A DNA stretch of 63,841 nucleotides, counting the filler, from Conidiobolus incongruus B7586 (lineage: Eukaryota): the NCBI GenBank assembly GCA_000697335.1. It is 6 parts of 6 records of this genome, joined end to end, with 100 filler letters (N's around TTAATTAATTAA, not from the genome) between each part and the next. Parts side by side here need not be neighbours in the genome. Positions count along the whole stretch, not along the records: positions 1 to 30,433 come from JNEM01006086.1; 5 more parts are not named here. One strand, given 5' to 3'. The notes under the pieces are model-generated. The model was not told the DNA's origin, did not search any database, and saw nothing but the letters and a program-made list of their open reading frames with translations. This document shows positions 4,501 through 61,673 of this stretch, one piece after another (position 1 is the first letter of the stretch; every line of letters begins with the position of its first letter). A program made the translations under genes and the position numbers.

Positions 4501-7023
4501 TGAATTAAAGTGTGTGTTGAAAATTGCAAAATATCCTTGATTGTTAAGCTGGAAATGAATAATAATTAATATATATGATATAAATCAATATTTATAAAAT
4601 AATTGCAATACAAAATATATGATTCATTTTCGCATTTTTCATATTCATTAATTGAAAATTACTTATTGTCATATCAAGCTTGTGTTAGCTATAATCTAAT
4701 ATAGAATAAATTGGGATAATACTTAACGTTATTTCAAAGTTGGAGTATAAATTTTAATATTAATAATTTAAAATTATGCTTTAAATTTGGAAAAAATCAT
4801 ATATACATTTTCGTAGTCTAATTTACCTTTCCAAGCATTCAATTCTTAGAAGATTTTAACTTCATTTTATATTTAAATTTGATTAATAATATATATTATA
4901 TTTGTTTATTGAATTTGGAATTTTTGATATTGAGATCAATAATCATTTCAAGATAAGTTATATTTTAATTTATAAGTTATGAACTAGTTTCCATAAGTAT
5001 ATAAATATTTGCTATAAAGTTGATTATTTTTGAATATTAAAAATGCAAAAGTTAGAGTAAAAATAATTTCTCAGCAATAATTAATATCTTCCTCCTTTTT
5101 CAATAACCCAATTCCATACTATTAGTAGTCATTTAACCTCTTTATATATTTTTTGTACAAATCATCTTCAAAATTACACTTCTAATTTGAAAATGCAAAG
5201 TTAAAATAATATCAAATTACTGTCCTCATATCAAATTCCTTAACTTACCAAAACAATTATGATGTGAAGGTTTCATATTTGGTGAGCATGGAGGATAGAG
5301 CAATAAAGTCTAGTTTCTTTCAATCAACAAAGTTCGAATAATTATAATTGTATATATTGTTATTATCATATATCAAATTGATTTTTTAAATGAATATTTC
5401 TTACCCTAATTATAACATTGATTTTTAAATAATTTTTACTTTGGTATTTATACTAATAGTTTGGATCTTTAACGCAGGTATTTTTTTATTTTTATCTTAA
5501 TAAATCATATATTAGGATTTATAATTCATTTATTGTATTGGTTTTGTTAGACATAGTATAATAAGCATTAGAATAATATGAATTTATATTGGCTATGTTT
5601 TTTCTCTTATTTATTTGATCTTTAATTAAAACATAAGGTAATTACACTTTTGAATTTTTTTACTTGATTTCAAAATGTCTTTAAATAGAGTTGCAACAGA
5701 GATGACATTAAACTATAGAGTATGTATTAGCCTTTTTGCTTAGGTAGATAGATGATATTTAAAAAATTTCTTAACTTTAATTGAATTTATTTTGTTATAA
5801 ATATCAGATAACTTGAACAAGAGAAGTATTTTATATAAGATCTTCTAGCTTTGAATTAACTAGAATATTTCAATAATATATTTTGAAATCTTTTTGCCAC
5901 CAGATGTATATATGAATTTTTATTAGTAGTTGATATAGAATGTTTTTTATGGTATGATATCTTGACAAATGCTTTATATTCAATTCTTGTAAAATTTAAA
6001 ATTGCAGGATTCAATTTTTTTTAGTTTATTAAAATTTCTATCGAAAGTTATATATATGCAAATTATGATGTATTATCAAATCATTCATTACTGTTTAAAA
6101 TAATACTAAAATAACAGTACAATAATTATGATTCCTAAAATAGCGATTAATTATAACAAGAAATTTATTTTTTGAACCACTGGTTATTTTAATTCAATTG
6201 ATTTATGTGTTAACCTATATTAATATTTTAATCGAAGTTGATATTAATCAAAAAATTTATATGATTAAAGTATTTTAATAAACAAATATTTTTATTTAAT
6301 TTAAATCTTTGTTAATCCTGATTCGAGGTTTAAATAAAAATTAACTCAATTAACAAATTATATAGTGTATTATATTTTAATTTCGTAGTGAATAACTCAA
6401 TTCAAGAATAAATTATATTTTAATTGAATAATTTTAACGATTTTGATATTTATTTCAGAGTTTGCTATAAAATGATGATTGGTTTGAAATATGTTGATAA
6501 ATTTGATTATAATGTATAATAATTATATCAATTTTAATAAATCAATCAGTTACAATAAAACAATATTACGATAAAATTTTTAACATATATTTTAACTAAA
6601 CAATTAGCTCTTTAAAATCATAAAATTTCATAAATTTTTATTAACTCAAACCACCTAAAATCAGCGTTGTCAATTGTGTTGATTAGGAATTATAATGGAT
6701 ATTCTAGAATAATAGTTATATCAATTTATTTCTATGTTGATATGATTTAAAGAGTATATTATGAAATGAAATACATTAACTCGTACCCTTAGATATTAAA
6801 AGAGAGTATGCGATATTTAGAAATAATACCTATTAGATCCAGCTAGAGTAGTCAAATAAAACAATTGGAATACTGCGCTGATATTATTATCCTACAAGTG
6901 TGAGAGTGCTTAGGTGGTAAATGAATAATTAGTAATATAATGAACATATCTGATTCCCAATAAGATATTAAATTTCCAATTGTAGAATGACATCGTCCTT
7001 TAATTAATATTGTTTGTAAAGAG

Positions 7024-8292
7024 TTAGGCAATGATATTACGGGATTTACCGATTTCAATGAAAGCATCTACGGCCTTCTTAATTTGATCGTCAGTAATGG
7101 CGGCGGATAATTGAACTCTGATTCTAGCAAGATCCTTGGGGACGACGGGGTAGGAGAATCCAATGACGTAGATACCCTTCTTAGCCATATCAGCAGCGAA
7201 TTCAGCAGCCAAGCGAGCATCTCCCAACATGATGGGGGCGATGGGGTGATCATCTCCCTTGACATTGAATCCAGCAGCCTTCAAAGAGTCTCTAAAGTAG
7301 CGAGTATTTTTCCATAATTGTTCTCTGAGTTGGGGTTCAGTATCAACCAATTCTAAAGCAGCAGAAGCGGCACCAACAACTGGAGGAGGTAAGCTGTTGG
7401 AGAAGAGGTAGGGACGACTTCTTTGCCTGAGTAAAGCAATGATATCCTTGTGACCAGTAGTGTAACCTCCAGAAGCACCACCCAAAGCCTTACCTAAGGT
7501 GGAGTTGACCAAGTGGACACGGTCTTGAACGCCAAAGAGTTCAGGAGTACCTCTACCAGTTTTACCCAAGAAACCGGTGGCGTGACAGTCATCGACGAAG
7601 ACAATAGCGTTATATTTTTCTGCGAGATCACAGATTTGATCAAGAGGAGCGATACGACCGTCCATGGAGAAGACGCCATCAGTGGCGATCATCTTGAGTC
7701 TGGCGCCATTTTCATCAGCCAACTTGAGTTGACGTTCTAAGTCTTCCATATTGGCATTTTGGTAGCGGTAACGCTTAGCTTTACACAATCTAATACCGTC
7801 AATAATGGAAGCATGGTTCAAAGCATCAGAAATGATGGCATCTTGATCCTTTAATAAAACTTCAAAGATACCAGCGTTGGCATCGAAACAAGAGGCATAT
7901 AAAATAGTATCTTCAGTACCATAGAATTTGGAGATTTGATTTTCAAGTTGATTGTGTATATTTTGAGTACCACAGATGAATCGAACAGAGGACAGACCGG
8001 CACCGTGGGATTCTAAATATTCCTTGGCTCTTTGGATAACTTTAGGATGGCTAGACAAACCTAAGTAGTTGTTGGCACACAAGTTGATTTCTTGAGTGAT
8101 AACACCGTCATGTTCAACTTGGATATCACTTCCCTGACGAGAAATAATAGCTCTTTCAACCTTGTAAGTTCCTTCGTTTCTAATAGTCTTTAATTCATTG
8201 GCAACAACTTCATGTAAAGAAGCGTTATGTGATAAACGAATCTGTTGAAGATTAAACCTTTTTATAGTTGTTTTAGCAATGTTAGTAAGCAT
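7024..8292 (-). CDS. GCAT: 2-amino-3-ketobutyrate CoA ligase (glycine C-acetyltransferase), mitochondrial, intronless
   Basis: NLCANNYLGLS, GLSSVRFICGTQ, SCFDANAGIFE, DGVFSMDG, STLGKALGGASGG (PLP lysine), LRQRSRPYLFSN, GFSYPVVPKDLARIRVQ. First ATG is at 8292 and begins an Arg/Lys-rich presequence. Confidence 0.95.
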   Translation of the reverse strand: MLTNIAKTTIKRFNLQQIRLSHNASLHEVVANELKTIRNEGTYKVERAIISRQGSDIQVEHDGVITQEINLCANNYLGLSSHPKVIQRAKEYLESHGAGLSSVRFICGTQNIHNQLENQISKFYGTEDTILYASCFDANAGIFEVLLKDQDAIISDALNHASIIDGIRLCKAKRYRYQNANMEDLERQLKLADENGARLKMIATDGVFSMDGRIAPLDQICDLAEKYNAIVFVDDCHATGFLGKTGRGTPELFGVQDRVHLVNSTLGKALGGASGGYTTGHKDIIALLRQRSRPYLFSNSLPPPVVGAASAALELVDTEPQLREQLWKNTRYFRDSLKAAGFNVKGDDHPIAPIMLGDARLAAEFAADMAKKGIYVIGFSYPVVPKDLARIRVQLSAAITDDQIKKAVDAFIEIGKSRNIIA

Positions 8293-8676
8293 TTTGTTCA
8301 AACTAGATTAGCGATCAAGTGACGCCACTTCAAATTTCGACCATACTTAATATTATAATTAATCACTTGATTTGTGGGATCTTTAGAATTCCTGATTGAC
8401 ACTAACAATCTTAGTTGATGAAAGTGCGAATTCTATAAAAATTAAGTCGATTAAACAGGATTTAACTTAATATGTTATGTTCGCTTTTTCATTTACCAAA
8501 AAAAATTCTTATTTTTCTGCTTTATTAATTTCCATGTCATTTTAAATATTTTGTGATAATTAATCTTAAAAAAAAAGATTATGAAATATGATAGCATGTA
8601 CTATATTTAAAATTACAAAATCAAATAATTTTGGAATATGTATGCAAATACTTGATATATTGTAAATAAATGTTTT

Positions 8677-22142: not shown

Positions 22143-22518
22143 TAATATTATCAGTTTTATTGCATTAATTATATATCTTATCTATTTTATCTAATATATT
22201 GTAATAACAAATTTATAATATTCAATAAAATCAAGTTATTACTGATATCATTACATTATTTTAAGGAATATCTTACATTATTGAGCTAACAATTAGGTAT
22301 ACTTTTCAATTCTATTTTAATTGTATTTAATATTGATTTTAAATAAATCCAATATAAAAATTTCAAAGGTTCATTAAATTTTATCTATCCCAAACATAAT
22401 AGTACTATTTAAAGGAGGATATTATTTATAAACTAATATTTAAATTAAATAAGTGTAGAATGTGAAAATAATTTATAGCTAGAATAAACACAATTTACTT
22501 AAATATACAAACGATTAT

Positions 22519-23760
22519 TTATGAAGTGAAAAAGGGATAGCTCTGGGGCGGAAGAGGAGGAGGAGAGCTACTAATAGGTCTGTGTAAAGCGTGGTCCACA
22601 CCTTGTAATAATGTCGATGTTTTTTGGATGAGAGTATTCAACTGTTGAACTTGCTGTTCCAACTCCTCCCTATAACCCAATAACGCTCTATGGCTCATAT
22701 TGGAGGGTGGTAAATTCGGCGAGATGTGAGGCGAGATGGGAGCCAAATTCATACCTGGTGTGTAGAAAGACTGAATGGAGGGTAATGTGATATTGGATCT
22801 GGGCTGAGGATTATAGCTAGGCATAATATAGTCTTGTTGATGGAATACGGTGGACACGCTTGGGTTTAAATGAGACAAATCGTCGCTAGACTGTGGTTCA
22901 TTAACAGAAGTGTGTGATATCGATTCCAAGCTTTGAGGAGAGTGGTAAGGTGTTTCGAATTCATTTTCGGGGAATTCAATAATGTATTTGGGCAGACAAT
23001 CGTCTTGCTTCTGAGCCATCTTCTTTCTGACAATGAAATCTTCAATAGCTGGCACGTCGTTAACTTTGAAAGTCGACATCGAATGAGTCATATTGTTTAT
23101 CGAACTGGTCATGTGATGATTCTGAGCATTATCAGATGAAGGATGAGTTATGTCACCCATTTCTGAAGATTCTCCATCCCAATTATTACCTTCTTGGCCC
23201 AATTGAAATTGAGTAAAGCGCTTACGGCGCTTAATCACCGTCTTTTTTAAACTGACCGGACGATGTGTTTTATGAAGTTTGTAATATAGTCCACAAGCAT
23301 TACAGATAGTAGCGCCGGTATCATCTCTTCTCCAAAGGGGGGTCGTTGTAGCGGAGCAATTAGCACATACTGTATTTTGTTTAGCGACGTTGCTCTGGTG
23401 AAATGCTGGACAGCCAGCACAAGATGCGGAGCCACCAGTTCCATTACAGTGGCCATCACCGGCACAAGAGCCACCTTGTTTAGATGCGGAGGAGGAGCAC
23501 GAAGTTTTTTGGGTAGGTTTTTTAAGTCGATTGGGACGATCGGATTTATTGGACTTGAGGTAAAGGCCACAAGCGTTACAAACGGTTGATCCGTCGGGAG
23601 CTCTTCTCCATAATGGAGTATGATCAGTACCACAATTGGCACAGTGTGTAGGTCCAAGCTTTGATTGTTTAACAGGCCTCGACTGCTTGTTTGAAGAGCA
23701 AGCGTCATCCATGGACAAACGTTTCTGTAACGATGATTCGGCAAATGATTGACCAGTCAT
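22519..23760 (-). CDS. sreA: Iron-responsive GATA repressor of the SreA/Urbs1/Fep1 family
   Basis: Two CANC-x-TPLWRR-x-CNACGLY zinc fingers flank the Cys-rich GSCAGDGHCNGTGGSASCAGCP iron-sensing motif. C-terminal coiled coil (YREELEQQVQQLNTL). Confidence 0.93.
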   Translation of the reverse strand: MTGQSFAESSLQKRLSMDDACSSNKQSRPVKQSKLGPTHCANCGTDHTPLWRRAPDGSTVCNACGLYLKSNKSDRPNRLKKPTQKTSCSSSASKQGGSCAGDGHCNGTGGSASCAGCPAFHQSNVAKQNTVCANCSATTTPLWRRDDTGATICNACGLYYKLHKTHRPVSLKKTVIKRRKRFTQFQLGQEGNNWDGESSEMGDITHPSSDNAQNHHMTSSINNMTHSMSTFKVNDVPAIEDFIVRKKMAQKQDDCLPKYIIEFPENEFETPYHSPQSLESISHTSVNEPQSSDDLSHLNPSVSTVFHQQDYIMPSYNPQPRSNITLPSIQSFYTPGMNLAPISPHISPNLPPSNMSHRALLGYREELEQQVQQLNTLIQKTSTLLQGVDHALHRPISSSPPPLPPQSYPFFTS

Positions 23761-23818
23761 TTTAGCACAAATCTAATAACAATACACAAAAAATAAAAAG
23801 AAAAATATTAATTAAATT

Positions 23819-24747
23819 TTATCAGATGAAATTAACCTAATTTATATGATTTGTTCTAGTGTTAAGAACTTAATGAATATTAAAAAATTATCAGATGAAA
23901 ACTTTAAAGAGTTTTAATTGGTCAATTTATAATTTTAAATTTAATTTGTGGAAATTAGTATTCTTATCAGATTGACATTTTATGTGAATATTGAACCTTT
24001 AAAGAGTATTGATGTGTAATCCTTGAGTAATTGTTATAGAAAATGATTGATCTAAAAAATTGAATAATTACCTAAATTGTTATTCATCTGATAAAACTTA
24101 AAGAATTATCAGATAAATTTTTGTTAAATAGATAGAGTAATATATATAACCACTTTGAGAATGATTTGGATTCTAAATAAGAAACTAAATATATATATAT
24201 ATATATTTATAATGTTTAAAATATATTGACATTCCAATACTAGTTTTTTAATATTCATTTAGACATTCTCATATTAGGGTGTATATTTAAGTTATCATTA
24301 TAAATTTCGAAATACAAAAATAAACACTATATAACATGCAATATCCTTATTAAGATTATTTTAATCATTAATATGCTAATATTAATAATAGAAACTCAAT
24401 TCAGTTATACTAACTTTTAATAAAATTTTATGTCAAACTGCTTGACTATTAATTTGTAAAATGTCTATAAAATAAATTAATTTATAAAATGATAAGATAA
24501 TTATTATACAATCTATAAATTGCAGAATAATAGTAAATAAAATCTTTAACTATAATTTATTGAAATACTAAAACCTAATATGACCTTTAAATTTTATAAT
24601 AATAAGTTTCATGTTATATCTTCAATTTAAATCATTTTTTACTTTTGGGTATTTGATTGGAATTTTGTGAAAAATATAATATATTTATATCCAAAGATGA
24701 TTACTAATTAATATAATTTGTTATATATATATTAATTAATCTGATAA
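23819..24747. promoter_or_regulatory. Cluster of ATC(A/T)GATAA SreA-type boxes upstream of sreA
   Basis: Exact 9-mers on either strand at 23819, 23888, 23964, 24086, 24106 (TTATCAGATAA, reads both ways) and 24739. Confidence 0.7.
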
Positions 24748-25049
24748 ACTTTTTTTACTTTGTAATAATAATTTTGATATTTTCACTGATTCTTAATCTA
24801 ATATTTTATATTAATTTTAGACAATAGCTATAAATATTCATTGTTTGTTAAATATGTAATTATTTATTTTGATATATAATAAAGTATTTATTAATAATAT
24901 TGCCAATAAGAATTTATTGTTATTAGAAACTTTAATTTCCTAGTCCTATATATATTAACTTGAATTAATTTTACCTTTTAATTGGAAATTAATAATAAAA
25001 TAAAAAGGAATCATATTCCTAAAACAAATAAAAAAACATACTTAGAAAA

Positions 25050-28000
25050 GACTCTTTTGTTATTTATTTATTTATTTATACTAAAACACTATCATTATAA
25101 ATTATTACAAATTATAAATATAGTGGTAAATATTAATATAATATAGAGGAAAACTTAATATAAGAGTAATGTGATATAGAATATAGTACTATAATATGGT
25201 TATAGTGTGCAAATATAAACAAAGTTTAATTAAGCTTCAAACTAGGATGAGTACCTAATATATTAAGATTTATATTAGGTAGTACCAATATATTATAATA
25301 TTAATAAGATATAGTTTTAATTTTAAAAATAGTGAAAAGGATAAGAAATAATAAGAATTGAGAAGAAAAAGAAAAACCTAGTTTATTAAATATTTCAATA
25401 TTATTTATATAATTAATTTAACTATAAAAGTATATATTAATCATATAATTTATAGTCAATTAAATTATATGAAAGTATATATAAGAATTAAAAGAACTAG
25501 TCTTTTAATACTCCTTTAGTAAATTTCTTAAAATAGACACACTTTTTAGATTTTTATAAATAGGTATAATAAGCTAAAATATTTTTAATATTTTCTAAAG
25601 GTTCTTATATAATTACTTTAATAAAATAACCTATTTATTTTATATAGAAATAAAGCTTATTCCTAATAAATTTCAATTTAATTATATAATCAACATAGTA
25701 TTCTTTTTCTCTATCTTAATTAATAATTAAATCTAATTTTAAAGCCTTTAATTGATTAAGAAAAATATTAAAATCTTCAAAGTAAAGTTTGATTTTAGAT
25801 ATATAAAAGGTGAAGTTAATTTTTACAATTAAATATAATTCTAAAGTAATATTTTCAAAATTTAAATTAATAGATTAAATTTTATAAAGATTATAATATA
25901 ATAGCAAGTATTTTAGACTTTAGTTAAATTTAAATAAGATAGGTTTAAAGGTAAATTATTATAAATATACAAACATATTAGTTTTATATTTAAAAAGATT
26001 CTTAGATAACTTTAAATATTGTTATTTTATATCCTTTTAAATTTCTTCCAAGTTAAATTTAATAAGGGAATTAATATATTTGATATTAGATTAAAATTCA
26101 ACAACATTTAAAAGTAAGTTAATTTAAAGTTTGAAAACAATTATTAAGTTAAAATATTTATTATAATAAATGAAATAAAGGTTAAAACTTATTAATTTGT
26201 TAATAAAAGTATTGAATAAATATTTATGTTGATAGATATAAGTATCTTAATTTAATTGATTAGTGTTAATATAATCTTTAATCATTTATTTTAAGGTTTT
26301 AATAATTTTTTCAATAAGTTTATTAGTTTAATAATGATTAATAGTAGATATAGTTAGATTAATCTTAAAGGATAAAGATAATAACTTTTAAAATTAAAAG
26401 TTAAATTATATATTTTATTAAATATAGTAATTTGTGGAATTTTATAATAGGTAAAGATATTAGAGAATAATAATTATATAATATCTTTAGTTATAAAAGT
26501 TTTGAAATTAAAAATAAAATAAACATATTTAAAAAATAAATCAATTACAATTAGTAAGTTATTATAACTAGTTGTTGTTTTAAAAATTTCTATAAAATCA
26601 AGTTAAATTTGTTATTAAGTTTTATTAAAAACTTATAGGGGAATAAGTTTACTATATTTTATTTAGGTATTATATTTAATTCTTTAGTATATATCATAAG
26701 TATTAGTGTATTTCTAAATTAATTTAATTAAAAAGAGTTAGTAATTTTTATTTTAATTCTCTTATTAGTTTTTAACTAGCTTTAATATCCTTTAATAAGT
26801 AAGTTATAATAATTATTAAATATTGTTTATTAAATCTTAAGAATATTAGGGATATTTACAATTATTATAATATAGTAAGTTATTAATGATTTTAAATCTT
26901 TTAACATATTTTAATTAATTTTTTAATAGTTTAGACAGTTTTTTTTAATTAAAATAAAGAAATTGTTATTTAGTAGTATTTTTTAAAATAATTTAATAAA
27001 TTTTTTATTTTCTTTATTAATAATCATTAAGTTAATATTTATTGGGTTTTTATAATTAAAATAAAAAGATAAATATGTAAGATTTTTTAATAAAGTATTT
27101 ACCATATAATTTTATTAACCTAAGAAATATTAAATAAACAAAAAATAAGCTTAGATAATTTTAATTTATTTAATATATTTTCTTAATAAATACTTTTAAG
27201 TATTTAAGTAAATAAGTAATTTATAGTTTATAAATATTAAAAAAAGGTTGTAAAATAAGAAATGTAAATGATTTTTAATTATTTCTACTAAGGTAAAAAT
27301 TTCTTATTTATAAACTCAATATTTTAATTCAACTAGCTTTATTTTTTTTAATTAGAAGGTTATAAGCTTTAAAATAATATTTATAAAGTTAAACTTAACT
27401 TATTCTCCCTTATTTATTATTTTATCTTATAGTTAAAAGATAAAATATAAATTAAATTTAAATTAAATTAACTATCTATTAATTATAAAAGAATTAAAAT
27501 TAATAATAATAATTGTTGGTAGTTTAAGATTAAAAATAAATAAAGTAAAAACATTAGTAATATAGAAAATTAAAGCATTTATATAAAAAGTATATAGTAA
27601 GGTTTATTTAAAAAGAGAGTTTTTTCTTAAGAAATTAATTAGAGGAGTTATAAGTTTAACAAAAAAATCAATGAAATCTTTAAAGTAATTTAATAATTTA
27701 AGTGTAAATATAAGTTGATCTTTGTTTATAAGCATAGTAAAAGTTTTTATACCATTGAGTTTAGTTAGATTAATGTTAATTCTTTAAGAAGATATAATAT
27801 AACTATAGAAGGAGATAGAAGAGGTACTAAAAATATATTTTGATAATTTTAAAGGTAATTTGTATTTTTGAATAATTTATAAAATATAATTAGTATGTTA
27901 AATATATTCTTCTTTAATTTTTGAATAAATTAAAATATTATTAAGATAAATAATAATAAAGTTATTAAAAATAAAGTTAAAAAGGGAATTGATAAATTAA

Positions 28001-30433
28001 GTAAAAGTTACAAGAATATTATATAATCTAAAGTTTATAATAGTAAATTTATAATAGTTTAGTAAAGTATTGAAAGTACTTAAAAGAATAGAATTTTCTT
28101 TAACTTTAATGTTATAATAATTATTTCTAACATTTAATTTAGTAAATATAATAGATTTAAGTAGTTTATCTTTAATATCATATAGGTTTAATAATAAAGT
28201 TTTATCCTTAATAGTTTTAAAGTTTAAAATATAATTATTAATATATAATTTTTAAATTCTATTAACCTTTTGTATAAAGAAGATAAGAGATTTTTATAGT
28301 AAAGAAAAAAGTTTAATATATTTATTTTCAAGTAATTTTTAAATTTCTTTTTTTAAAATTTAATATTATTTAAGAGATAAATGATAAGTAAGCTTTAAGT
28401 ATAATTGTATATCTAAGAAAAGTATAATTTTATATTTAATATTATGTTTAAGAGGTAATCTACTTATAAATTTAAAAACATTAGCAAATTAACTTACTAT
28501 ATTGTTTAAAAAGTGGTTATTAGTTATAACTTTATTGAAATCAACAAATAAAGTACTAATAAATTAATAATAAATAAATACATATCTTTATAAATTATTA
28601 AAGTTTTTAATTAGTTTTTTACATTAGTTTTTATTTATAATAATAAAATTATTTAACATAATTATAAAACTAATATTAGGTAAAATATTTAATAATTTTA
28701 TAGTAAGGTAATATAAATTTTTTGAGATTAATTCTATTAATTTCTTTTAAATACAAAAAAAAATTTATAACCTTTTAAAGTAATACTTATTGATAAATAA
28801 ACTATGGTATTTAAATTAATTTTAACCTAGTATAAAATTATAACTAATATTATTAACTAGGAATTTAATATATTAAAAATAGTTAAAAGATAATAATAAG
28901 TATTTAAATATAATATTAGATATTTGTTCTATTAAATTATTAGCATATTTAACTATTAAGTTGCTTTTTTAAATAGGTTAAAATAGTTTTATTATAATAA
29001 AAAAAAATTAATACAACTAGAACAAATAGGGTTAATTAGAATATTAATAGGTATATTAATAAAATATCTAGTTAAAACAAGTAATAAGATAATAATTAAA
29101 GGTAAAAAATTATAAGATAAATTAATTACTAGAATATTTTTAGTTTCTAGTAGTTTAATCAGTTAAATTTCACTAATATATATAATTTAATTTGTAGAAT
29201 TATTAGTCTATTAGAATTTTTATGGATTAAATTAAAATCTACTAATTAATTATAAAAGAAATGATTTTAAAGTAATATTAATATTATTGAAGTTTAATTT
29301 ATAATTAGTAAATTAAGATTATTGAGAATTAAATAGATGTTATTTCTAAAAAAAATACTTATCAACTTTATAATTAACCTGTGTTTTTTAATAATAGTAG
29401 CAACTTCTATTTACTCTTAAATAAGCTTTAACTTCTTTATTAAAAGTTTCTTTATAAACCTTTAAAGCAGAAATATTTATTATTTAAGACTTAAATAGAT
29501 TAAAATATATTTTAAAGGATTAATTCTTAAGATAAAAAGATTAAGTTATAAAATAAAAGATATTATCAATTATAATTATTATATTATAAATATTAAAAAA
29601 AACATATTTTTAAAATATTCCCTATTAATTAATTAGAGTTTTATTTAAAAGTTTAAGCATTATAATAACTTATAGATTTATTCTTCTTTAGTGATATTTA
29701 ATATATTTAAATATATCTTATTGAATTTTTCAATTAATTACCTTATAAATATTCTTTATTTAAATTAAAAAAGCTTTTTTTTTGTAAATTAAACTTAATT
29801 TTTTAGGCAATACCTTTCTTTAAAAGACTTTTGTAATTATTTAAAGGTTTATATTTTTATAGTAGGTTATCCCCTTAAAAACTTTTAGGAATAAGTTTGT
29901 AATAAGTTAATTATTAAATATAAGTAGATTTTTCTAAAAAAAAATAGTTAATTTAAGGATATTTTTTAAATCTTTATTAAGAATTAGGTTAAGATAATTC
30001 TTTATATTTTTAAGATAGTTTTTAAGTTTATAGAGGTTTTTAAAACTATTATAAATAGTTAGTTTATCTTCAAAAATACTAAAAAAATAGTTTAATATAT
30101 TAATTATAGTAAAATAAGTAGTTTATTAGATTTAAGCTTTATAAATTATGTTTTTCTTAACTAAAAGTTATTTAATATAAGTTTTTTAAAAGGTAACAAG
30201 CTTTTAAAGATTAAAGTTTTAGTTTTATTTAGTAATTAAACTATTATTATGAAAATAATATAAAGGTATTTCTTTTTTTAGTAGTATTATAGTGTATAAT
30301 ATTAAATTAAAGTAAAATAAGATATAAATAGAATTTAAAATAGTAATAAATAAATTTGATATAGGTAATTATTAATTCCTAGTAGGTTTTTAGTAGTGTT
30401 ATTATTGTTACTATATAAGTATAGTAGTAAATA
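25050..30433 (-). mobile_element. Hypermutated Ty3/Gypsy LTR retrotransposon gag-pol relic
   Basis: Minus strand at about 27980-28260 reads IKDKTLLLNLYDIKDKLLKSIIFTKLNVRNNYYNIKVKENSILLSTFNTLLNYYKFTIINFRLYNILVTF, which is Gypsy RT (FTKLDxRxGYH..TPxGHYEFxVMxFGLxNAPATF) after transitions. I*YFLG**NYMVNTLLKN near 27080-27140 matches the RNase H end (IxYxPGxxNxxADALSR). Boundaries approximate; cut by a gap. Confidence 0.85.
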
Positions 30434-30533
30434 NNNNNNNNNNNNNNNNNNNNNNNNNNNNNNNNNNNNNNNNNNNNTTAATTAATTAANNNNNNNNNNN
30501 NNNNNNNNNNNNNNNNNNNNNNNNNNNNNNNNN
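30434..30533. other. Artificial scaffold linker N44-TTAATTAATTAA-N44 (also 39246-39345, 45486-45585, 54724-54823, 62278-62377)
   Basis: Identical 100-bp structure occurs five times. TTAATTAATTAA gives stops in all six frames. Confidence 0.97.
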
Positions 30534-30785: not shown

Positions 30786-31720
30786 ATTTATATTATTGGA
30801 ATTTTTGTTGGAGGAGGGTCAATTAGGCATGATTAAATAATTGTTAGGCTTTGAATTAAATTAATGGGATTAATTGAAATTATTGAAATTATTAAAATTT
30901 TTGATATATCAAATTTTATTTATTCAAGGATGAGAATTTTATACAAATCGTATTATTCAACATATTATTTTTTGAATTATTTTTATGAATTTATGTAATG
31001 ATTATTCCTTTAAAATATTAATAAAAATTGGGTTTTCAAATAAATAATTTTTTCAAAATATTAATTTCAAATTAATTTTCCTTGAAAAATGAACTGGTTA
31101 GATTGAATATACCTAGTGTGTTTGAAAAGCTGTTAGAGTTCATATTTAAAAAAATCTTTATAAGGTTAATATCATTGAGTTCAAATGTTCATTCCAATAA
31201 CTATTTTATAATATTTTTATATTATCATTATTGCTACATATTTCCCAATTTAGACTTCATTAAAATTAATTTATCCAATGGTTTAAAGTCTATTTTCTTA
31301 TACTTAAATACCACTTTATCAATCATAATTATTTCACTCAAATTTTAATATTATTGTGAATGATTGTAAGTGATCAAATCATTTATCTTATTTATTATAT
31401 ACATAATACAATTAACCAGGAGAATTTCAACAAAAAATAAAATGACTAAATATTACAAAATTTTAAGTTTTATTTGTTGAACAAAAAGCATCTATTAAGA
31501 TATCATTTAATACAAAACATTCTATATCAACTATTCTTAAAAATCTCTAAATAATAACTAATGGCAAAGGATTTTCATAGTATAATTTTATAAACTGGTT
31601 TAATCAACTTAAAGTTAGGTGGTCTGATATAAAAGACTTACCTTATTTAAATTATTTTAAATTTATAACTAATTAAAATAATATTTCAAATATCACTTAT
31701 ATACTTGAGTAAAGAAACTA

Positions 31721-33035
31721 TTACCATAAAATTAAACAAATGGGAAATTTTTTAAATTTCTGATTTTTCAAACATATTATTAGTTTTAAATAAAAAAAAA
31801 TATACAAAATAAATAAGAAAATAAATAGCTTTGAATTAGATATATATATATAATAATTTTTTTGATTAAAAAATTAATTTTTTAAAATTAATTGTTTAAT
31901 TTAATTATATTTAAACTAAATAGTAACTATCAAAAGTATTTTATTTTAATATTAGTAAAACTTAACCACAAACTCTTTAAAATCATTTAAAATTTATAAG
32001 CAGCTTTTAATAATAAAGTATTATCTAAATTAACAATTTATTGCTAGGTAAATTATTTTAAAGTTAAGAGACAAACTACCTAAAACCTGTTAAAATCTAG
32101 AAAACTAATTTTAACTATTATTTTTTTAATTATTAATGAAGTAAAAAAATATATTGAAAAGTATCTTTTTATTTTAGTTAAAGAATTATCAAGATATTTT
32201 AATATTAGTTACATAAGTATTTTATATATATTAAAGTTTAAATTAAAATTAATTAATAATAATATAAAATAGGTACTTTATAATTTAATTAAAGTTTAAA
32301 AAAAAGCTAGAGTAGCTATTGCTAAACAAAACTTACTAAGGTATAGTTAGAAACTAAAACTTTTATAGTAAATTATTATAATTAATAAATTTTAGATTCT
32401 TTTGTATAATCTTTTATTAAAACATAAATTAAAGTGTTAGATTAAGTTAAATCAACCCTTTTTATAAATTCCTTTAAATAAATATTTTATTAATAAGCAA
32501 ATATTAATTGTTGTAATAAATTATAATAGCATATACTATTTTTATTTAGTTTTTAAAAGAAAATCAATTAATAATAAACTTTATATTTCTTTTTTAAATA
32601 AAATTATATCTAATTGGTATTTTTAATATAATTTAAGAAAACCTATTATTTTACATGATAATTATAAAATATATAAATCTAAAGTTGTAAAAAACTTTTT
32701 AATTAAAAATAACTAGAAAAAACTACTACATCTAGTATATTCTTTAGATTATAACTTATGTAATTATAATTGTTTTAGGCAATTAAAAAACTAGCTTACA
32801 AGAAAGAAAATTTTTACAAGAAAATTTAATTAGTTTGTGGAATATCAAATTTTAGTCTTTAATAAAAAGAACTATTTTTTAGGTGTTAGATCTTTGCTAA
32901 AAGTATAACAAAAAGTTATTAGAAATAAATAAAATCAATAATTTTATAATATATATTTATTTTTCTTTTTTATATATTAAAATGTTTACTTTTTTTCAAT
33001 TACAAAAAATTCCCATTATTTAAATTACAAAGTAA
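31721..33035 (+). mobile_element. Mariner element copy A, full length, heavily C>T/G>A mutated
   Basis: Colinear with copy B (40129-41448), e.g. KPIILHDNYKIY...LLHLVYSLDYNLCNYNCF. TIRs TTACCATAAAATTAAACAAATGGGAAATTTTT / AAAAAATTCCCATTATTTAAATTACAAAGTAA flanked by TA. Length 1315 bp. Confidence 0.88.
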
Positions 33036-33747
33036 TATAATTATATTTAAATAAAAAAATTTTGAATTTTTATTTTGATTATATATTTAAAAATTATAAT
33101 TTCAAATAATAATTATAAAATATATACTGAATTAAAGCTGCAATAAGTTTTTATATAAAAACTACAATATTTAATATATTTATTATATTATAACATATTT
33201 ATTTATATTTGATCTATTTAATAAAAAATATATTTATAAATAAAAACTTTTAAAATTAATATTAATAAATTTATATATTATCAATTTTAATCTTTAATAA
33301 AAAAAATTAATTTTTTAGATATTACAAGTTTATTAAAAGTATAGAGTTATTAATAATAAAAGGAGGATTTATTTCAATATATATATTTATATTAGTTTAT
33401 TATATATAAAAATTAATTTAAATTTGATTTTATAAATAGGTTATTATTTAATTTCTAGAGTAAAAATTAAAGAATTGAAAAAATAACAAAATGATTACAA
33501 ATTATAATGTGTAATATTAAAAATTAAGAAAAATGATTGAAATATTATACAATATATAGATTGTGCAAAGTCAAAAACACACCTTGAAAATAGTAATAAG
33601 TGGAATATTTAATATATAATGTTATGATAAATACAGATCTAAATGTCTAACTATTGAAAATATATAACATTCAAATTCCAAATCAATTTAAGTCATAATT
33701 GATCAATGTTAATGAAGCTAGATATTGTTGTAAATATAGGCCAATAT

Positions 33748-38740: not shown

Positions 38741-39345
38741 TAATAATTTTGATAATTTTTAATTTTTTAATTAATTTAAAATATTATATTCATAACTATC
38801 AATAATTAATTCAATTTATATCATCCAATTATTGAATTAAATATTGATATTTTTTGGTGGTTATTTATATATAAATTAATCAATATAAGAATATAATTAA
38901 TATTAGTAATATATAATAAATTTATATTGATAGTTATTATATTACTAAGCTATTTATTAGAGTTTAAATTATTACAAATAATAAAGCAAATTTAAAACAT
39001 GGAATATTATTATAACTTTAATTTTCCAATATTATTATACTTATAAAAATTATTTAGCAAATTATTGATAATATGAAAAATTAAAAAATTTAATAACTTA
39101 AGTAATTTTACCATCTTTGTTTTATTTCCAAAATATATTTTATAAACTAATATTAATCAAAATTATCTAAGAATAATTAATAAAAGGAATAATATATAAA
39201 TTAAATTTATTTAATATATTAAAGTTGAATTATGAATATAAGTTTNNNNNNNNNNNNNNNNNNNNNNNNNNNNNNNNNNNNNNNNNNNNTTAATTAATTA
39301 ANNNNNNNNNNNNNNNNNNNNNNNNNNNNNNNNNNNNNNNNNNNN

Positions 39346-39776
39346 CAAAAATACTTTTAATTAAAATTTTTATTATAATTTAAAAAGATCTATTATATTA
39401 TATAATAATTATAAAATATATAAAGCTAAAGTTATAAAAAACTTTCTAATTAAAAATAACTAGAAAATTACTATATCTAGTATATTCTTTAAACTATAAC
39501 TTATGTGATTATAATTGTTTTAGTTAATTAAAAAACTAGTTTACAAAAAAGAAAATTTTTATAGAAAATTTAATTAGTTTATAAAATATCAAATTTCAGT
39601 TTTTAATAAAGAAAACTATTTTTTAAATATTAGAACTTTATTAAAAATATAGCAAAAAGTCATTAAAAATAAAAAAATTAATAATTTTATATTATATATT
39701 TATCATTATAATTGATATATTAAATTATTTATTTTTTTATTTGCAAAAAATTCCCATAATTTGAATTATAAAGTAA
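39346..39776 (+). mobile_element. Mariner copy C, 3' part after gap, same subfamily as copy A
   Basis: Aligns to the 3' third of copies A and B (tatattctttaaactataacttatgtgattataattgtttt). Ends in the copy-A type TIR AAAAAATTCCCATAATTTGAATTATAAAGTAA-TA. Confidence 0.82.
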
Positions 39777-40128
39777 TATATTAAAAATATTAATTTTTTA
39801 TAATTATCATTAATTAAAATTCTTTTTACAATACTAACTTTATATTTATTGAAACTATAATATAAGATAATAAGTATATTTAGTTTATATTAAAAATATT
39901 ATTTAAAATATATTATTATGATTATTTATAATAATTAATTTTTACTTATAAAAAGAATATTTATTTTTAAATTTATATAACAGACTGTTTTAGTTTTTCC
40001 TAATATTTTGATTTATGTTTTAATAAAGAATTATATAAAATTATATATGGTTTATTAATTATAATAAAAATATAATTAAAATTTTAGTATTTAATTATAT
40101 AAAGTTTAATTTAATTATAATTATTTTA

Positions 40129-41448
40129 TTAGTATAGAAATTAAGAAATGGCAAATTTTCTAATTTCTGATCTTTCAAACATATTATACATTTTGAAAGA
40201 TTATATATATATAAAATATATAGGAAAATAAATATTTTCAAACTATATATATATATTCAATTTTAATTATTTTTTTTATTAAAATATTTTCATTTTAAAA
40301 TTTACACTTAAATTTAATCATGCTTAAACCAGATTGTGATTATCAAAAGGCTTTTATTTTTGTATCTTTATAACTTAACCATAAACCCTCTAAAATCATC
40401 TAAAACTTGCAAACAGCTTATAGAGATGGTGCTTTATCTAAAACTACCATATATTGCTGGATTTGTGATTTTAAAGCTAGAAGGGACACTATTTAAAATT
40501 TATCAAAATCTAAAAGACTAATTTCTACTGTCACTCTTTCACTTACTAATAAAGTAAAAAAATATATTAAGAAATACCCTTTTATTTCTGCTAGAGAACT
40601 ATCAAAGCAATTTAATATTAATTATACAAGCATGTTATATTTACTTAAGTTTAAACTTGGATTAATTAATAAAAATGTAAAATGGATACTTTATAATTTA
40701 ACAGAAGCCTAAAAGAAAACTAGAGTAGCTATAGCTAAACTAAACTTATTAAGGTATAACTAAAAACAAAGGTTTTTACAGCAAATACTTACAATTGATG
40801 AATCTTGGATTCCTTTATATAATCCTTTATATAAAAATAAAACAAGATGTTGGGTTAAGCTAAATCAATCCCCTCTACAAATTCCAATGAATAAGCACTT
40901 TGAATATAAGCAAATGTTAATTGTTGTAATAGATTATAATGGTATATGGTCTTCTTATTTAATACCTCAAGGAAAATCAATTAATAGTAAGTTATATATT
41001 ACTTTTTTAAATAAAACAATTTCTAAATGGTGTTCTCAATATAAATTAAAGACACCTATTATTTTGCATGATAATTGCAAAATACATAAAGCTAAAGCTG
41101 TAAAAGATTTTTTATATAAAAAAAATTGGAGGGAGTTACCACATCCAGTATATTCACCTGATTATAATCCATGTGATTATAATTGTTTTGGACAATTAAA
41201 AAAACAGCTTGCAGGAAAAAAAATTCCTCCAAACAAATTAAATTGGTTTGTGAAACATCAAATTTCAGTCTTTAATAAAAAGAACTGTTTTTTAGGTATT
41301 AGAAGCTTACCAAAAGTATAGAAAAGAGTTATTAATAATAAAGGAGGCTATTAATTTTATATTATTCATTAAATTTTATATATTATTTATTAATTTATTT
41401 GTTTAATTTTAATTTTAAAATTGTGCCATTACTTAATTTCTGCACTAA
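40129..41448 (+). mobile_element. Mariner (DD34D) element copy B, full length, least mutated
   Basis: TIRs TTAGTATAGAAATTAAGAAATGGCAAATTTT / AAAATTGTGCCATTACTTAATTTCTGCACTAA with TA target duplication. Length 1320 bp. Confidence 0.93.
40320..41354 (+). pseudogene. Mariner transposase pseudogene, 345 codons, no net frameshift, multiple nonsense codons
   Basis: HTH region (DGALSKTTIYCW), ILTIDESW, ILHDNCKIH, HPVYSPDYNPCDY with 34 residues between the 2nd and 3rd Asp. Stops at positions consistent with CAA>TAA and TGG>TAG. Confidence 0.9.
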
Positions 41449-42321
41449 TAATTTTTTAAAACTTTTATTAAATTATTAATTATATATATTATATTATATT
41501 AAATAATTTGAGTTTAACTTTAAAATTTATAATATATTTTATAAACAATATTCAGAATATTATATAGTTTTTTAATCAAAATAAATAATATATATTTTAT
41601 ATTAATAATAATCAAAAAAATAATATTTAAAATTAGATTTTTAAAGTATAATTAGGTTTAAATAATTTTTCTTTTAACTTTAAATTAATTTAACTAATAA
41701 TAAATATTTAATCTAAATAAAATATTTTTTAAATATTATTTGTAAAATGTAAATGATTTTTAAAAATTTATCATCAACTTTTATTAATACTAAAATATAT
41801 AAATGTGGATGATATCTAATTAATATTGATATAATTAATTAAATAATATATTTTTAAAACGAATTTACTAATAAAAAATTATAAATAAAATTTAGAATTA
41901 TTAATATTTCAATTGATCATATATATAAATATATATTTAAAAAATTAAAAAATAAAAAATTTATATCTTTAATTTTAAAATTATATTATAGCTTATTTTT
42001 TTGTAAATTTTGTATATTTAAATTATAATAAACAATATATACTCAAGTTATAATGATAATTTATATATTTTGAAATTTTTCATTTTATAAATAATATGAT
42101 ATATATATTAATTGATTATAATAAAATCAAATTATTTATCGAATATTAAATAAAGGATCTTAAATATATTCATATACCAAAAAATATATAAAAATAATTA
42201 AAATATTAATTAAAAATATAGATTAATATAATTTTTTCTAATATAATTTATATAATATATAACTATTTAAATAAAATGAATAATCTTTTAAAATTTTTTC
42301 CAGCTAGTAGAAAAAAAATTG

Positions 42322-43239: not shown

Positions 43240-45585
43240 TATGCGGTTAAAATAAATAAGCGATGATTAGCTAACTATGAACTTGCAGAAGATGAAGTGA
43301 TAGAAATCGACGATATCCTATTTATATGGATTTACTTGCGGGTTTGGGGTAGGTGTGAGATAACAGTAAGGAGTCTTTTAATTAGTTAAAGCTGTTTGAT
43401 TTGAAAATTTGAAGTTTTTTCCAATTTTAAAGTCACATTATTGAATTATTCAAAATTTGGCCCCAATTCAACAAATAGGAGGTGCATTAAAATTAGGGTG
43501 AATATTTTGTAAATAAAAATTGAGATAAAACATTAATATTTGAAACAATAAAATTTTTATAAGAATTTGAATTTTAGAGGCTTGATACATTCTATTTTTT
43601 ATCTAAATTATAGGTATCAAATAATGGAAATTTTATATATTTAATTTTATAATCAATAGCCCTAAATCAAAAAAAAAATAAATTCCAATTTCATTGCCCT
43701 AAATATTGAGCGAATATCATGCTTTAAAGTTAGCTTTTTTAATTAGTGAGGTGTAAACTTTAATACAGTATATTGCATTCGTTACCTTCTTTTTTACTTA
43801 ATATTCATTAATTACCTTTGAAATATTACTATCCCAAGGAAGTATTAAGTAGACCTATAATTTTAAAGCATAAGATTATTTTTGAATTAAATTGAAATAA
43901 AAAAAATATTAGAAAAACTTTGAATTTTTTTAATATATTGGAAGTCACACTTAAAAAATTTAATCTTGAATTCAGATAATTAAAAGTCTTTATATTTAAA
44001 TCTATTTAATGATGCATTTAAGATTAAATTATACTCAAATATATATAAATTACCTATATCAATACTAAAAAGTTGTGAATTAAGAATCCTGAATTAGAAC
44101 TAATTTGATTATCTCATATAAAGATTTATAATAATTTATAATTTTCATATATAATATTTTAATATTAGTATTATTCAAAAAAATTGAATATCCTATGATA
44201 ATGGTTAATTCAAAAAATACAAAATATTCATTATATTATTTTGTGTCATAAATTAATTTATAATATTACCAAATTATATTCAAATAATTTACAAAAGAAT
44301 ATAAAAATTCAATTTATATTTGATATATCATTGATTTCAAAGATGGTATCTCAATAAAGTATACCAATGAAATATTCCTTAATATTAGTTTAATACGAAA
44401 CTCAATCATTACGTCAGAATGAAACCTATCGTAATAACTTTTATAGTTAAATAGGTTTATTTATTATTAGATACAATCAGGAATTTTGTTTATTTGAATC
44501 AATAATTTTTAACAAATCAAAGATATTCTCAAATTTATAGTTTCATTTTATTTAGTCATTTAATATTTGAAACAATAATCGTTTGAAATTTATCAGATAG
44601 TACAAATATAGTTAAACCAAATATCTTTATCAGATAAGAATAATATAAAAATATATAATATAAAGGTGTTTTAAGCAAATTTCATAATTAATTTAATTTT
44701 ATATCGATTTAAATTTCAAATCATACATGGATTAATATTTTTATCAAAAACCTTGTTCTTAATAATATTTTATTTTTATACTAGTACTTATATTTTACAA
44801 AATTTTAATATATATTACATTATAATACTTTGTAAAATTTATTTTTAATGAATATATAATAGGAATTAAATTAAAAATTCAAGGTATTCAATCAAACGAT
44901 AATGGTAGTTTAATAAAAATTTAAAATATTTTAAAATTTATTCAAATAGAATAGAATTTGCGAATCTGTACTGTATAAATCACTTACTGAATATAAATAA
45001 ACTCTATGATATATATCATATAACAGCGCTGATCCAACTTTTCGATTTTATTTTTGTTTAAAATAAAACTAATATCATAAAATAATGGTTTTCAATAGTT
45101 TTGGTCAACAAATAATGAAAAATTTTAAATTTTTTAATCATGTTATTATAAATTTTTATTTTCCTAATATTACAGAATATATTTATTATTATAAACTGGT
45201 CTAAATTAAAATTATTTACTAATATAGATATATCAAATAAGTCTTTTTGTTTTCAAAATTATATTATAAATTTGTACCTATCTTGTTTATATTTAATGAT
45301 TTGATATTGATATAGAATTATAAATTTTTTAAATTTATTATATATTAGATTAATATAGAATTTTTATAAATTAATGATTTTAATTAAAATAATAATAATA
45401 ACTATTTCACTTATACTGTTGATATAAGATTTTTATTTATATAACAATGAAATAAAATTTTGATTTGGATTAATCTGATAAATACNNNNNNNNNNNNNNN
45501 NNNNNNNNNNNNNNNNNNNNNNNNNNNNNTTAATTAATTAANNNNNNNNNNNNNNNNNNNNNNNNNNNNNNNNNNNNNNNNNNNN

Positions 45586-53539: not shown

Positions 53540-54824
53540 TTTCCTACTTTCCTCCACCATTTCTCATTTGTACTTTATTACTCACCAGTATGTAGTAGTT
53601 TTTTAAATTACTGCCAATTAACATATATTATTATTCTCTATTTTCTTAACGCCACCACCTTCTATTTGGAATAAGCACTTATTCCAAACTCCTTTCACTT
53701 TATACTCTCACCTCCTCATATCCCCTTTCGCCGGTTAATTATTTCAAAACTCAAACAACACACTTTCACAGCCCCTTGCCCAATATCGCGCCTTCCGAGT
53801 ATTGTGACCACTCTTTTTAAGCTGCCCTTCCTATCCCCGGGCCAATCAGTCAGCCAGTTAGTCAACCAGACAGCCAATCAATCCAACCTTCATTTAGTTA
53901 ATTTTAGTTCTAGCAGTAACCAATGTAACAGTCCAAAGTGCCAATAATTATTGTATCCAACCAGAAGATTATAACTACCAGTACAAAATATTTCTCTTGA
54001 TTTCAGTCGACCACTCGGACAATAATAATTATTATTTCATCAATAATAATATTATTAAGATTTCCATTGACTTATATTTTTTTAATTAATCCTACCCACC
54101 CTCCTCTTACTAGTCAATAGTATCTTTGAGTTTTATTATTAATTTTTTGTGAATTTTTAATATTAAATTGATTCCAAAAATGAGCTTGAAAATTTTAGAT
54201 TATAATATAAAATCAATCAACATCAATTAATCTGTATCTATAAATATTCATCATTTTTATGACTATTTTATTATTATTATTAATCCTTCAATCATTCAAA
54301 ATATATCATAGTTTTTATAAAATTATTATTTGATCTCAATTTTAGTAATTATTTATTAGTTTTTAATTTCAATATATTAATACTATTTTAAGATATTATC
54401 TATGATATTTTTTTATTAATTTAAGTATTTTTTGTTGTTAATTAATATAAAAACACTTTTATTAATTCATTTAAAATTTCTAAAAATAGTAATTTACTTC
54501 TCTTTGTAATATTTTAAAATTTTTTTTCTCATTTCAATAAAAAAAAGATTATTTTTATTTTCATTAGAATAGTCACATTAATTTAAATATTTTTATACTT
54601 AATATTATTCTCTCAATTAAAATAATTATTAATTAATTATATTATTAAAATTATTATTAAATAAGTTTAATTTTATTAGTAAATAGATATTTTTTTGGAA
54701 AATTTTCTTATATATAATAAATANNNNNNNNNNNNNNNNNNNNNNNNNNNNNNNNNNNNNNNNNNNNTTAATTAATTAANNNNNNNNNNNNNNNNNNNNN
54801 NNNNNNNNNNNNNNNNNNNNNNNA

Positions 54825-57800: not shown

Positions 57801-58196
57801 CCTCTCCATATTCTTCTCGCTGAAGATAACATTGTCAATCAAAAACTAGCCGTAAGAATTTTAGAAAAATTCGGACATAAAACAACGATTGTGCCCAATG
57901 GTTTGCAAGCAGTTGAAGCTGTTAAGAACAACCATTATGATCTTGTTCTCATGGATGTCCAAATGCCGATCATGGGAGGTTGTGAAGCCACCCAGCATAT
58001 CCGAGAATGGGAAAGAGAACATGGCCACCACACACCTATTATTGCACTGACGGCCCATGCTATGATTGGTGATAGGAAGAAGTGTATTGAATCAGGTATG
58101 GATGACTATGTCAGCAAGCCACTACGATTCAACGAACTTCTCGCCGCAATTAACAAGTGTACAATGACCCAGCCCATATCGCTCATTAACGATTAA
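54825..58196 (+). CDS. NIK1: Group III hybrid histidine kinase (Nik1/Os-1 type), 5' truncated by gap
   Basis: At least six 92-aa HAMP repeats (EVGTEGKLG), [19 protein letters not shown]-box, N/G1/G2 boxes, C-terminal receiver ([22 protein letters not shown]). Confidence 0.95.
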
Positions 58197-61121: not shown

Positions 61122-61673
61122 ATTAATACTAGTAACAATAATAAAAACTCCCTTGAACTATATTTGATAGAAGTTATATTTAGTTAGTTAAGGCAGGAGG
61201 AAATTTATGAATCATTAATACTAGTAACAATAATAAAAACTCCCTTGAACTATATTTGATAGAAGTTATATTTAGTTAGTTAAGGCAGGAGGAAATTTAT
61301 GAATCATTAATACTAGTAACAATAATAAAAACTCCCTTGAACTATATTTGATAGAAGTTATATTTAGTTAGTTAAGGCAGGAGGAAATTTATGAATCATT
61401 AATACTAGTAACAATAATAAAAACTCCCTTGAACTATATTTGATAGAAGTTATATTTAGTTAGTTAAGGCAGGAGGAAATTTATGAATCATTAATACTAG
61501 TAACAATAATAAAAACTCCCTTGAACTATATTTGATAGAAGTTATATTTAGTTAGTTAAGGCAGGAGGAAATTTATGAATCATTAATACTAGTAACAATA
61601 ATAAAAACTCCCTTGAACTATATTTGATAGAAGTTATATTTAGTTAGTTAAGGCAGGAGGAAATTTATGAATC
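61122..61673. repeat. Tandem array of six identical 92-bp units
   Basis: Unit ATTAATACTAGTAACAATAATAAAAACTCCCTTGAACT...GGCAGGAGGAAATTTATGAATC repeated 6 times head to tail with no spacers. Confidence 0.95.

Follow-up and report, generated by a model that had tools for sequence, protein, structure and literature searches.

The window analysed here, a 63,841-nucleotide stretch of the Conidiobolus incongruus B7586 assembly (GCA_000697335.1) that consists of six contigs placed end to end, carries relics of three unrelated transposon families, Ty3/Gypsy, mariner and Tc1, which have been inactivated by C:G-to-T:A change, likely through DNMT1-type and DIM-2-like methylation of silenced repeats followed by conversion to T, and without RID. 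The Ty3/Gypsy relic at 25,050-30,433 encodes pol on the minus strand and closes the first contig (1-30,433), on which host genes also lie. It was divided into the following parts.

25,100-25,540, minus strand: 3' long terminal repeat (LTR) of the relic, recognised from a jump in depth, with approximate edges on both sides (outer edge within 25,100-25,170)
25,563-26,728, minus strand: degenerate integrase region in two frames (profile matches with independent E-values, iE, of 1e-11 and 7e-7)
27,094-27,366, minus strand: degenerate RNase H (Pfam RT_RNaseH E 0.007, which is under the curated cut-off; profile match; Ty3 alignment)
27,505-28,491, minus strand: degenerate reverse transcriptase (RT), in which YxDD reads YLNN (profile iE 4e-44; yeast Ty3 RT/RNase H, PDB 4ol8, E 7e-25)
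28,492-30,433, minus strand: presumed protease/gag region reaching the contig end, so labelled for its position upstream of RT, its like composition and its 0 CpG

For searching, stops in the translation were carried as X, and domains were placed with a profile built from 20 stop-free Ty3 loci. Six RT/RNase H proteins among 7,996 scored matched the relic (best E 1.6e-23). RT, RNase H and integrase follow one another in the order of a Ty3/Gypsy LTR retrotransposon, and then comes the LTR, which is read from the depth jump. A single frame spans 666 codons (28,899-26,902) and holds 36 stops, 34 of them TAA. An earlier note on this DNA had described a Gypsy pol that stays colinear with RT and RNase H motifs over more than 5 kb; the identity was right and the length slightly generous, as the integrase sits in two frames other than the 666-codon one. 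No close intact relative of the window's Ty3 family was found, the profile search returning only four already-known proteins, and 80 Ty3-like metagenome loci were therefore taken as the comparison set. Sorting by stops and dinucleotides divided these into 20 stop-free loci, 26 of the type that repeat-induced point mutation (RIP) leaves, 12 CpG-decayed loci and 22 that were not used.

Across 25,050-30,433 the GC content is 14.0%, and there is no CpG where 24.1 were expected (P ~5e-8, scaled to the host baseline), which bears out the remark in the earlier note that CpG is essentially missing from the Gypsy relic. Observed/expected ratios (o/e) are 0.50 for CpA/TpG and 1.54 for CpT/ApG, and the 3' LTR has 0 CpG with a CpA o/e of 0.66. 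Both the product and the substrate index used to recognise canonical RIP are positive in the internal part of the element, with TpA/ApT at 1.25 and (CpA+TpG)/(ApC+GpT) at 0.45, compared with 0.60-0.80 and 1.22-1.47 in host genes. The pattern extends to four further relics in the window.

31,719-33,040, plus strand: mariner-type relic A, which is heavily mutated and whose terminal inverted repeats are degenerate (DDE_3 E 0.008; 75% identical to copy B)
39,347-39,977, plus strand: mariner relic C, partial, at the start of a contig (78% identical to A and 70% to B; GC 9.4%, 0 CpG)
40,127-41,450, plus strand: mariner-type relic B, less mutated, CpG-free (0 versus 15.5 expected), with a 185-codon open stretch (Pfam DDE_3 E 2e-9)
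62,552-63,586, minus strand: Tc1-type transposase relic (Sleeping Beauty transposase E 7e-14, no Pfam detection; 0 CpG; same fitted context order)

Taken together, the five relics (Ty3, three mariner and one Tc1; 9,576 bases) contain 0 CpG versus 53.4 expected. Within this window the pattern is confined to repeats and cuts across unrelated families, as the earlier note had argued when it named repeats, rather than one family, as the target. Its statement that neighbouring genes are normal in C/G and CpG also holds: CpG o/e is 0.62-0.83 across six host gene regions, and six intergenic control windows have 125 CpG versus 181.6 expected. AT richness alone does not yield the relic pattern, as six AT-matched non-repeat windows (GC 16.6%) have 17 CpG versus 20.0 expected and a CpA o/e of 1.11. 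A CpG-poor halo in fixed 600-bp flanks was not significant (1 versus 6.2 expected, P ~0.07).

The direction of change was read against the 20 stop-free loci, which are distant from the window Ty3. These gave 254 conserved columns, 181 of them aligned in the window, where 71 residues were kept and 110 changed. C>T or G>A alone accounts for 60 of the 110 changes (55%; shuffled null 14 ± 2%), the reverse alone for 1, and 49 arose otherwise. Of the exchanges listed in the earlier note, Pro>Leu, Asp>Asn, Gly>Asn/Arg, Trp>stop and His>Tyr were seen; its attribution of most differences to C>T or G>A stands for the 60 residues and does not reach the 49. At the level of required bases the asymmetry is much sharper: of 143 required G/C positions, 83 underwent a transition, 25 a transversion and 35 were kept, compared with 5, 27 and 158 of 190 required A/T positions (Fisher P 1e-32). 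C:G>T:A transitions are dominant on both strands, as in canonical RIP.

The mariner copies show the same pattern. About half of the G/C bases of copy B are A/T in copy A (123/241), with the two strands equally affected (66/126 C and 57/115 G), and over 975 gap-free bases codon position 2 has G/C in B against A/T in A 57 times, the reverse 7 times and transversions 9 times. Whole-length mariner comparisons give a transition/transversion ratio (Ts/Tv) of only 0.7-1.3, which is due to AT-rich ends and third positions, and the codon-position analysis was used instead for this reason. Decay of old relics through general AT drift plus CpG deamination would fit an AT-rich host, host haplotype differences that are rich in transitions, and the frequent A/T transversions seen when mariner copies are compared overall (151 transversions beside 200 transitions). 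However, these transversions lie mostly at codon position 3 (30/46), the required A/T sites are largely intact, CpG and CpA are normal in AT-matched non-repeat DNA, and neither a uniform nor a CpG+uniform model can yield a CpA o/e of 0.48 or a TpA/ApT of 1.25. Drift is strongly disfavoured and I regard it as very improbable.

The sequence context of the change sets the relics apart from known patterns. In the Ty3 relic, change reached 44/53 of the required cytosines that precede A, 38/56 of those that precede T and 0/8 of those that precede a surviving C. By comparison, the 26 RIP-type loci were mutated at 73% before A, 13% before T (164/1260), 5% before C and 23% before G, and retain CpG (o/e 0.46-1.51), and the 12 CpG-decay loci changed mainly before G. 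None of the environmental loci (L001-L080, in their three classes) is both free of CpG and depleted in CpA, the combination seen in the window. Among CC pairs of the mariners, 18 had lost only the second C and 4 only the first, and a 5' pyrimidine raises loss, TCA being the most depleted non-CpG triplet.

Rates were then estimated by a grid fit to dinucleotide composition, with an assumed starting composition taken from host coding sequence, a second starting set, and Neurospora ratios for the model of that name. For the Ty3 interior the free model returned a saturated CpG, CpA 1.8, CpT 0.7 and CpC 0.3 with a misfit of G=12, compared with constrained-model misfits of 325 (uniform), 3157 (CpG-only), 247 (CpG+uniform), 667 (CpA+CpG) and 143 (Neurospora-like); the last predicts ~44 CpG where 0 were seen. 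The order recurs in both mariners (at a lower dose in B), in the Tc1 tail and with the second starting composition, so that CpG (saturated) > CpA > CpT > CpC holds in four relics. This spectrum is neither the CpA-focused RIP of ascomycetes nor CpG-only decay nor uniform AT drift. The strong CpA preference with CpG largely spared that marks canonical RIP was not found, nor was the CA-specific, CG-sparing change of a Dim2 mutator, nor change limited to CpG as in Pucciniomycotina or in CpG decay, given the misfit of the CpG-only model and the depletion of CpA. The process resembles RIP in its working but departs from it in context, and cannot be classed under that name. Of the label "RIP-like" in the earlier note, repeat-restricted C>T change therefore remains, and the canonical context does not, with CpG hottest and CpT heavily mutated.

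Copy-level data came from contigs of runs X4 and X1, which derive from one sample, possibly the source, over 22,400-28,321; in these data depth is not copy number. For X4, 22,145 contigs aligned to the stretch; runs X5 and X7 had nothing substantial aligning to the element. Summed contig depth was 50,000-96,000 over 25,172-25,567; within the element it was 5,000-44,000, and the flank had 13-280, with single-copy contigs stopping at 25,155. The Ty3 relic is a member of a high-copy family, hundreds of times deeper than its flank and several-fold deeper again over the LTR. Most variant places are transitions (1,114/1,356 in X4 and 1,066/1,276 in X1, totals that include ~100 flank haplotype differences). 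G>A places number 295 and C>T places 163, close to the 291 G and 151 C remaining in the element, which means that nearly every surviving G or C has been lost in some other copy. Conversely, 656 A/T places of the window copy read G/C in some other copy, so the ancestor had a GC content of at least about one-third, and the damage differs among copies. Long contigs of the family are 15-18% divergent, and two of the 12 loose ends listed for X1 and X4 are less-damaged copies in which, judged by eye, 10/11 differences set A/T in the window against G/C.

Within 25,254-27,893, the 23 best-supported places at which the window copy departs from nearly all others comprise 10 A/T transversions and 9 at which the window has C/G and other copies T/A. 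These differences are likely an ordinary background of mutation after insertion.

The same data speak to whether contamination, mis-assembly or transfer could have brought in the relics from an ascomycete proficient in RIP. The window does consist of several joined contigs, its relics lie near contig ends, and the runs that match it all come from one sample. Against this, an error-free contig (23,805-25,155) leads from beside a host gene into the repeat edge, the Ty3 family exceeds the flank in depth by a factor of hundreds, and the spectrum is common to relics on four contigs and unlike that of all 26 RIP-type loci, which keep CpG. An ascomycete origin is hardly credible.

Enzymes, methylation and timing of mutation are presumed for the present host, the enzyme listing being that of its relative Conidiobolus coronatus. 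New repeat copies would be packaged as heterochromatin, DNMT1 with UHRF1 would keep CpG methylated, with CpG lost first and completely even in the lightly mutated mariner B, and a DIM-2-like enzyme would attack non-CpG cytosines. Conversion to T was probably enzyme-coupled rather than purely passive, because most non-CpG cytosines were lost with few transversions, and the process may run in vegetative growth without a sexual cycle. DNMT4 is the RID class of methyltransferase. The supplements of PMC10538959 list DNMT1 (KXN74494), UHRF1 and HELLS for C. coronatus and give DNMT4 and DNMT5 as not detected, and in the tree file of that study KXN73869 groups with the Dim2 clade (99.9/97). Across 633 proteomes, and a likely bacterial transfer aside, Masc1/RID is reported only from Dikarya (PMC5751038), and the supplement of that work contains no RID rows for Conidiobolus. 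In Zymoseptoria, Dim2 is described as raising mitotic C>T change in repeats tenfold (PMC8016269), and 5-methylcytosine (5mC) on repeats is reported for Linderina and Phycomyces (PMC11258239). The earlier note had left a choice between an analogous genome-defence mutator and very efficient methylation-deamination; that pair was well chosen, and what was observed tips towards its methylation-linked member.

A number of points weigh against such a methylation-linked process. The 49 changed residues that do not follow from C>T or G>A alone are one, in part expected from a distant reference. The 14 host-gene haplotype differences listed are another: all 14 are transitions, 7 of them at four-fold sites and 11 with A/T in the window and G/C in the other version, so a transition excess is not in itself diagnostic; a high Ts/Tv proves little, and the case rests on direction, size and context. 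The composition fit, for its part, presupposes a starting composition. In the literature, the table of PMC10538959 gives Dim2 of C. coronatus as "ND" and enters KXN73869 as Dim2 under Coemansia reversa; since the tree labels the accession Conidiobolus, an entry in the wrong row has probably obscured a Dim2 in Conidiobolus. Zymoseptoria Dim2 mutates CA (>98%) and spares CG, unlike the process in the window (PMC8016269), and Zoopagomycota are called 5mC-poor overall (PMC11258239). In PMC12543289 C. coronatus is scored "no_rip", and AT-rich 4-mers reach an enrichment of only 0.87-1.03 in its repeats. Either the reference strain may have a weaker effect, or the k-mer method may not see it; as described, this method requires a more than two-fold enrichment and may be blunted by an AT-rich background.

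Finally, sense-strand G was lost more often than sense-strand C in the Ty3 relic (56/67 versus 27/51 over 25,540-28,491, P 5e-4), an excess that is absent in mariner and that simple symmetric methylation does not predict. A cytidine deaminase of the AID/APOBEC kind, editing transposon DNA or retroelement cDNA, could produce this G>A excess, and the 5' pyrimidine effect, with TCA depletion and the 18 versus 4 imbalance in CC pairs, points the same way. DNA transposons, which have no cDNA, nevertheless show the same context order and no strand bias, and both the dominant role of the 3' base and the total loss of CpG are expected from methyltransferases. Deaminase editing is accordingly an improbable source of the damage.

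Two host genes on the contig of the Ty3 relic served to place the organism and as an unmutated control.

7,024-8,307, minus strand: host marker gene encoding a 2-amino-3-ketobutyrate CoA ligase (94% identity with C. coronatus)
22,519-23,772, minus strand: nearest host gene, a GATA-type zinc-finger open reading frame (ORF; labelled by eye), unmutated (GC 44%, CpG o/e 0.83, CpA o/e 1.15)

Identity of the marker falls from C. coronatus to Neoconidiobolus thromboides (74%), Basidiobolus (72%) and Entomophthora muscae (67%). Judged from this single marker, the host is a Conidiobolus (Zoopagomycota), distinct from the reference proteome and non-dikaryan, in agreement with the early-diverging fungus of the earlier note; a database search with the SNF2-type gene of the window was uninformative on taxonomy. 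None of the outcomes that the note had named as telling against it, a spectrum like AT drift, a CpG-only bias or a dikaryan host, occurred.

Several further features of the window were recorded. The contigs are separated by five identical spacers at 30,434-30,533, 39,246-39,345, 45,486-45,585, 54,724-54,823 and 62,278-62,377, each with a 12-base all-frame stop between two runs of 44 N, so order across them is no evidence of linkage. At 22,645-24,102, runs X1 and X4 contain two versions of the host-gene region at equal depth and ~10% apart (34/340, 29/283 and 36/296; 13/483 in one stretch), which indicates a hybrid, duplicated or heterokaryotic genome. The long ORF at 54,824-58,196 has unmutated 276-bp internal repeats that are ~75% alike and, by eye, resembles a hybrid histidine kinase with HAMP repeats. 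The tandem array at 61,122-61,673 consists of a 92-bp unit repeated six times, 100% matched and CpG-free; it represents a recent expansion or an assembly artefact, and was not diverged by the mutator. An unclassified inverted two-copy repeat (5,786-6,194 and 31,264-31,677, 68% identical) lies in CpG-poor surroundings, and the repeat region at 5,300-6,500 has no Pfam match.

A true analogue of RIP, in which homology-sensed duplications would be mutated in bursts at one particular stage, either zygospore formation or nuclear fusion, by a divergent methyltransferase in RID's place, with CpG loss added by ordinary methylation, has to be considered in this light. The saturating, nearly indel-free change on both strands of unrelated families, with a dose that varies per copy, would suit it, as would the positive RIP indices and a non-CpG order (CpA>CpT>CpC) that resembles the Neurospora order. 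In C. coronatus, 1-kb repeats number 0 at 95-100% identity and 555 at 80-95%, though short-read collapse can produce the same picture, and a composite RIP index of 24.2% is reported for Z. radicans (PMC11105155). On the other hand, RID/DNMT4 is not among the enzymes listed for C. coronatus in the supplements cited above, and C>T and G>A in mariner A are not significantly clustered by strand (55 runs versus 62 ± 5.5 expected). The 92-bp array and the two ~90%-identical gene versions, which may reside in different nuclei, moreover appear spared; the ~75% kinase repeats are untouched as well. The window version of this gene pair retains its CpG, and the pair was counted in favour of the methylation-linked process because a pure duplication sensor might not permit it. 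A RIP analogue proper thus remains rather unlikely, although a serious contender.

Compared with known systems, the relics share with RID- and DIM-2-dependent RIP of Neurospora crassa and Pezizomycotina the repeat-restricted C:G>T:A change on both strands, the inclusion of all transposon classes, largely kept frames, raised TpA, lowered CpA and CpC as the coldest context. They differ in that CpG is fully lost and CpT mutated at 68% rather than the 13% of RIP-type loci, in a host that is non-dikaryan and whose relative C. coronatus is listed without RID. Canonical RIP is further marked by dependence on RID/Masc1, premeiotic action in haploid nuclei and a response to homology between duplications of any sequence. 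The mitotic Dim2 mutator of Zymoseptoria tritici (PMC8016269), which as described is DIM-2-linked, acts by C>T on methylated repeats and needs no sex, is the best mechanistic model, though there the change is CA-centred, while in the relics CG is the hottest context and CT changes as well. TpCpG hypermutation in Pucciniomycotina and basidiomycete CpG decay (PMC3318451) have in common with the window that CpG is the top target and that a 5' T raises loss. In the window, however, change is not limited to CpG, and CpA/TpG is depleted (0.48) relative to ~1.0-1.8 in the 12 CpG-decay loci.

The finding is not wholly new. Composite-index signals from the same fungal order, Entomophthorales, suggest RIP-like activity outside Dikarya (PMC11105155, 2024: besides the Z. 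radicans value, 2.4% for E. muscae; three relatives score low; caveats are given), but the available text gives an index only, without substitution spectrum or context, and contains no figure for Conidiobolus. A survey of 1,239 genomes reports RIP-like signatures as confined to Ascomycota (PMC12543289, 2025), and RIP is described as not found in chytrids (PMC6572847); PMC13297926 and PMC7862722 served as background only. A literature search, whose coverage did not extend to subscription papers, found no substitution-level study of Conidiobolus repeats. For a Conidiobolus, the relics document strong hypermutation restricted to repeats, resolved by context and at the level of alignments, and the signature matches neither known type. 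The locus also suggests that k-mer screens based on fold enrichment can miss such a process in AT-rich genomes.

With these relics a long-open question becomes testable: can repeats be mutated by DIM-2-type enzymes on their own, and is that the ancestral form of RIP? Tentatively, and as a possibility to which I give less than even weight, zoopagomycetes may run a dedicated, RID-free repeat mutator on an ancient DNMT1/DIM-2 pair; repeat hypermutation would then predate Dikarya, RID-dependent RIP would be a later add-on, and the context in each lineage, here CG>CA>CT>CC, would read out the specificity of its own DIM-2.

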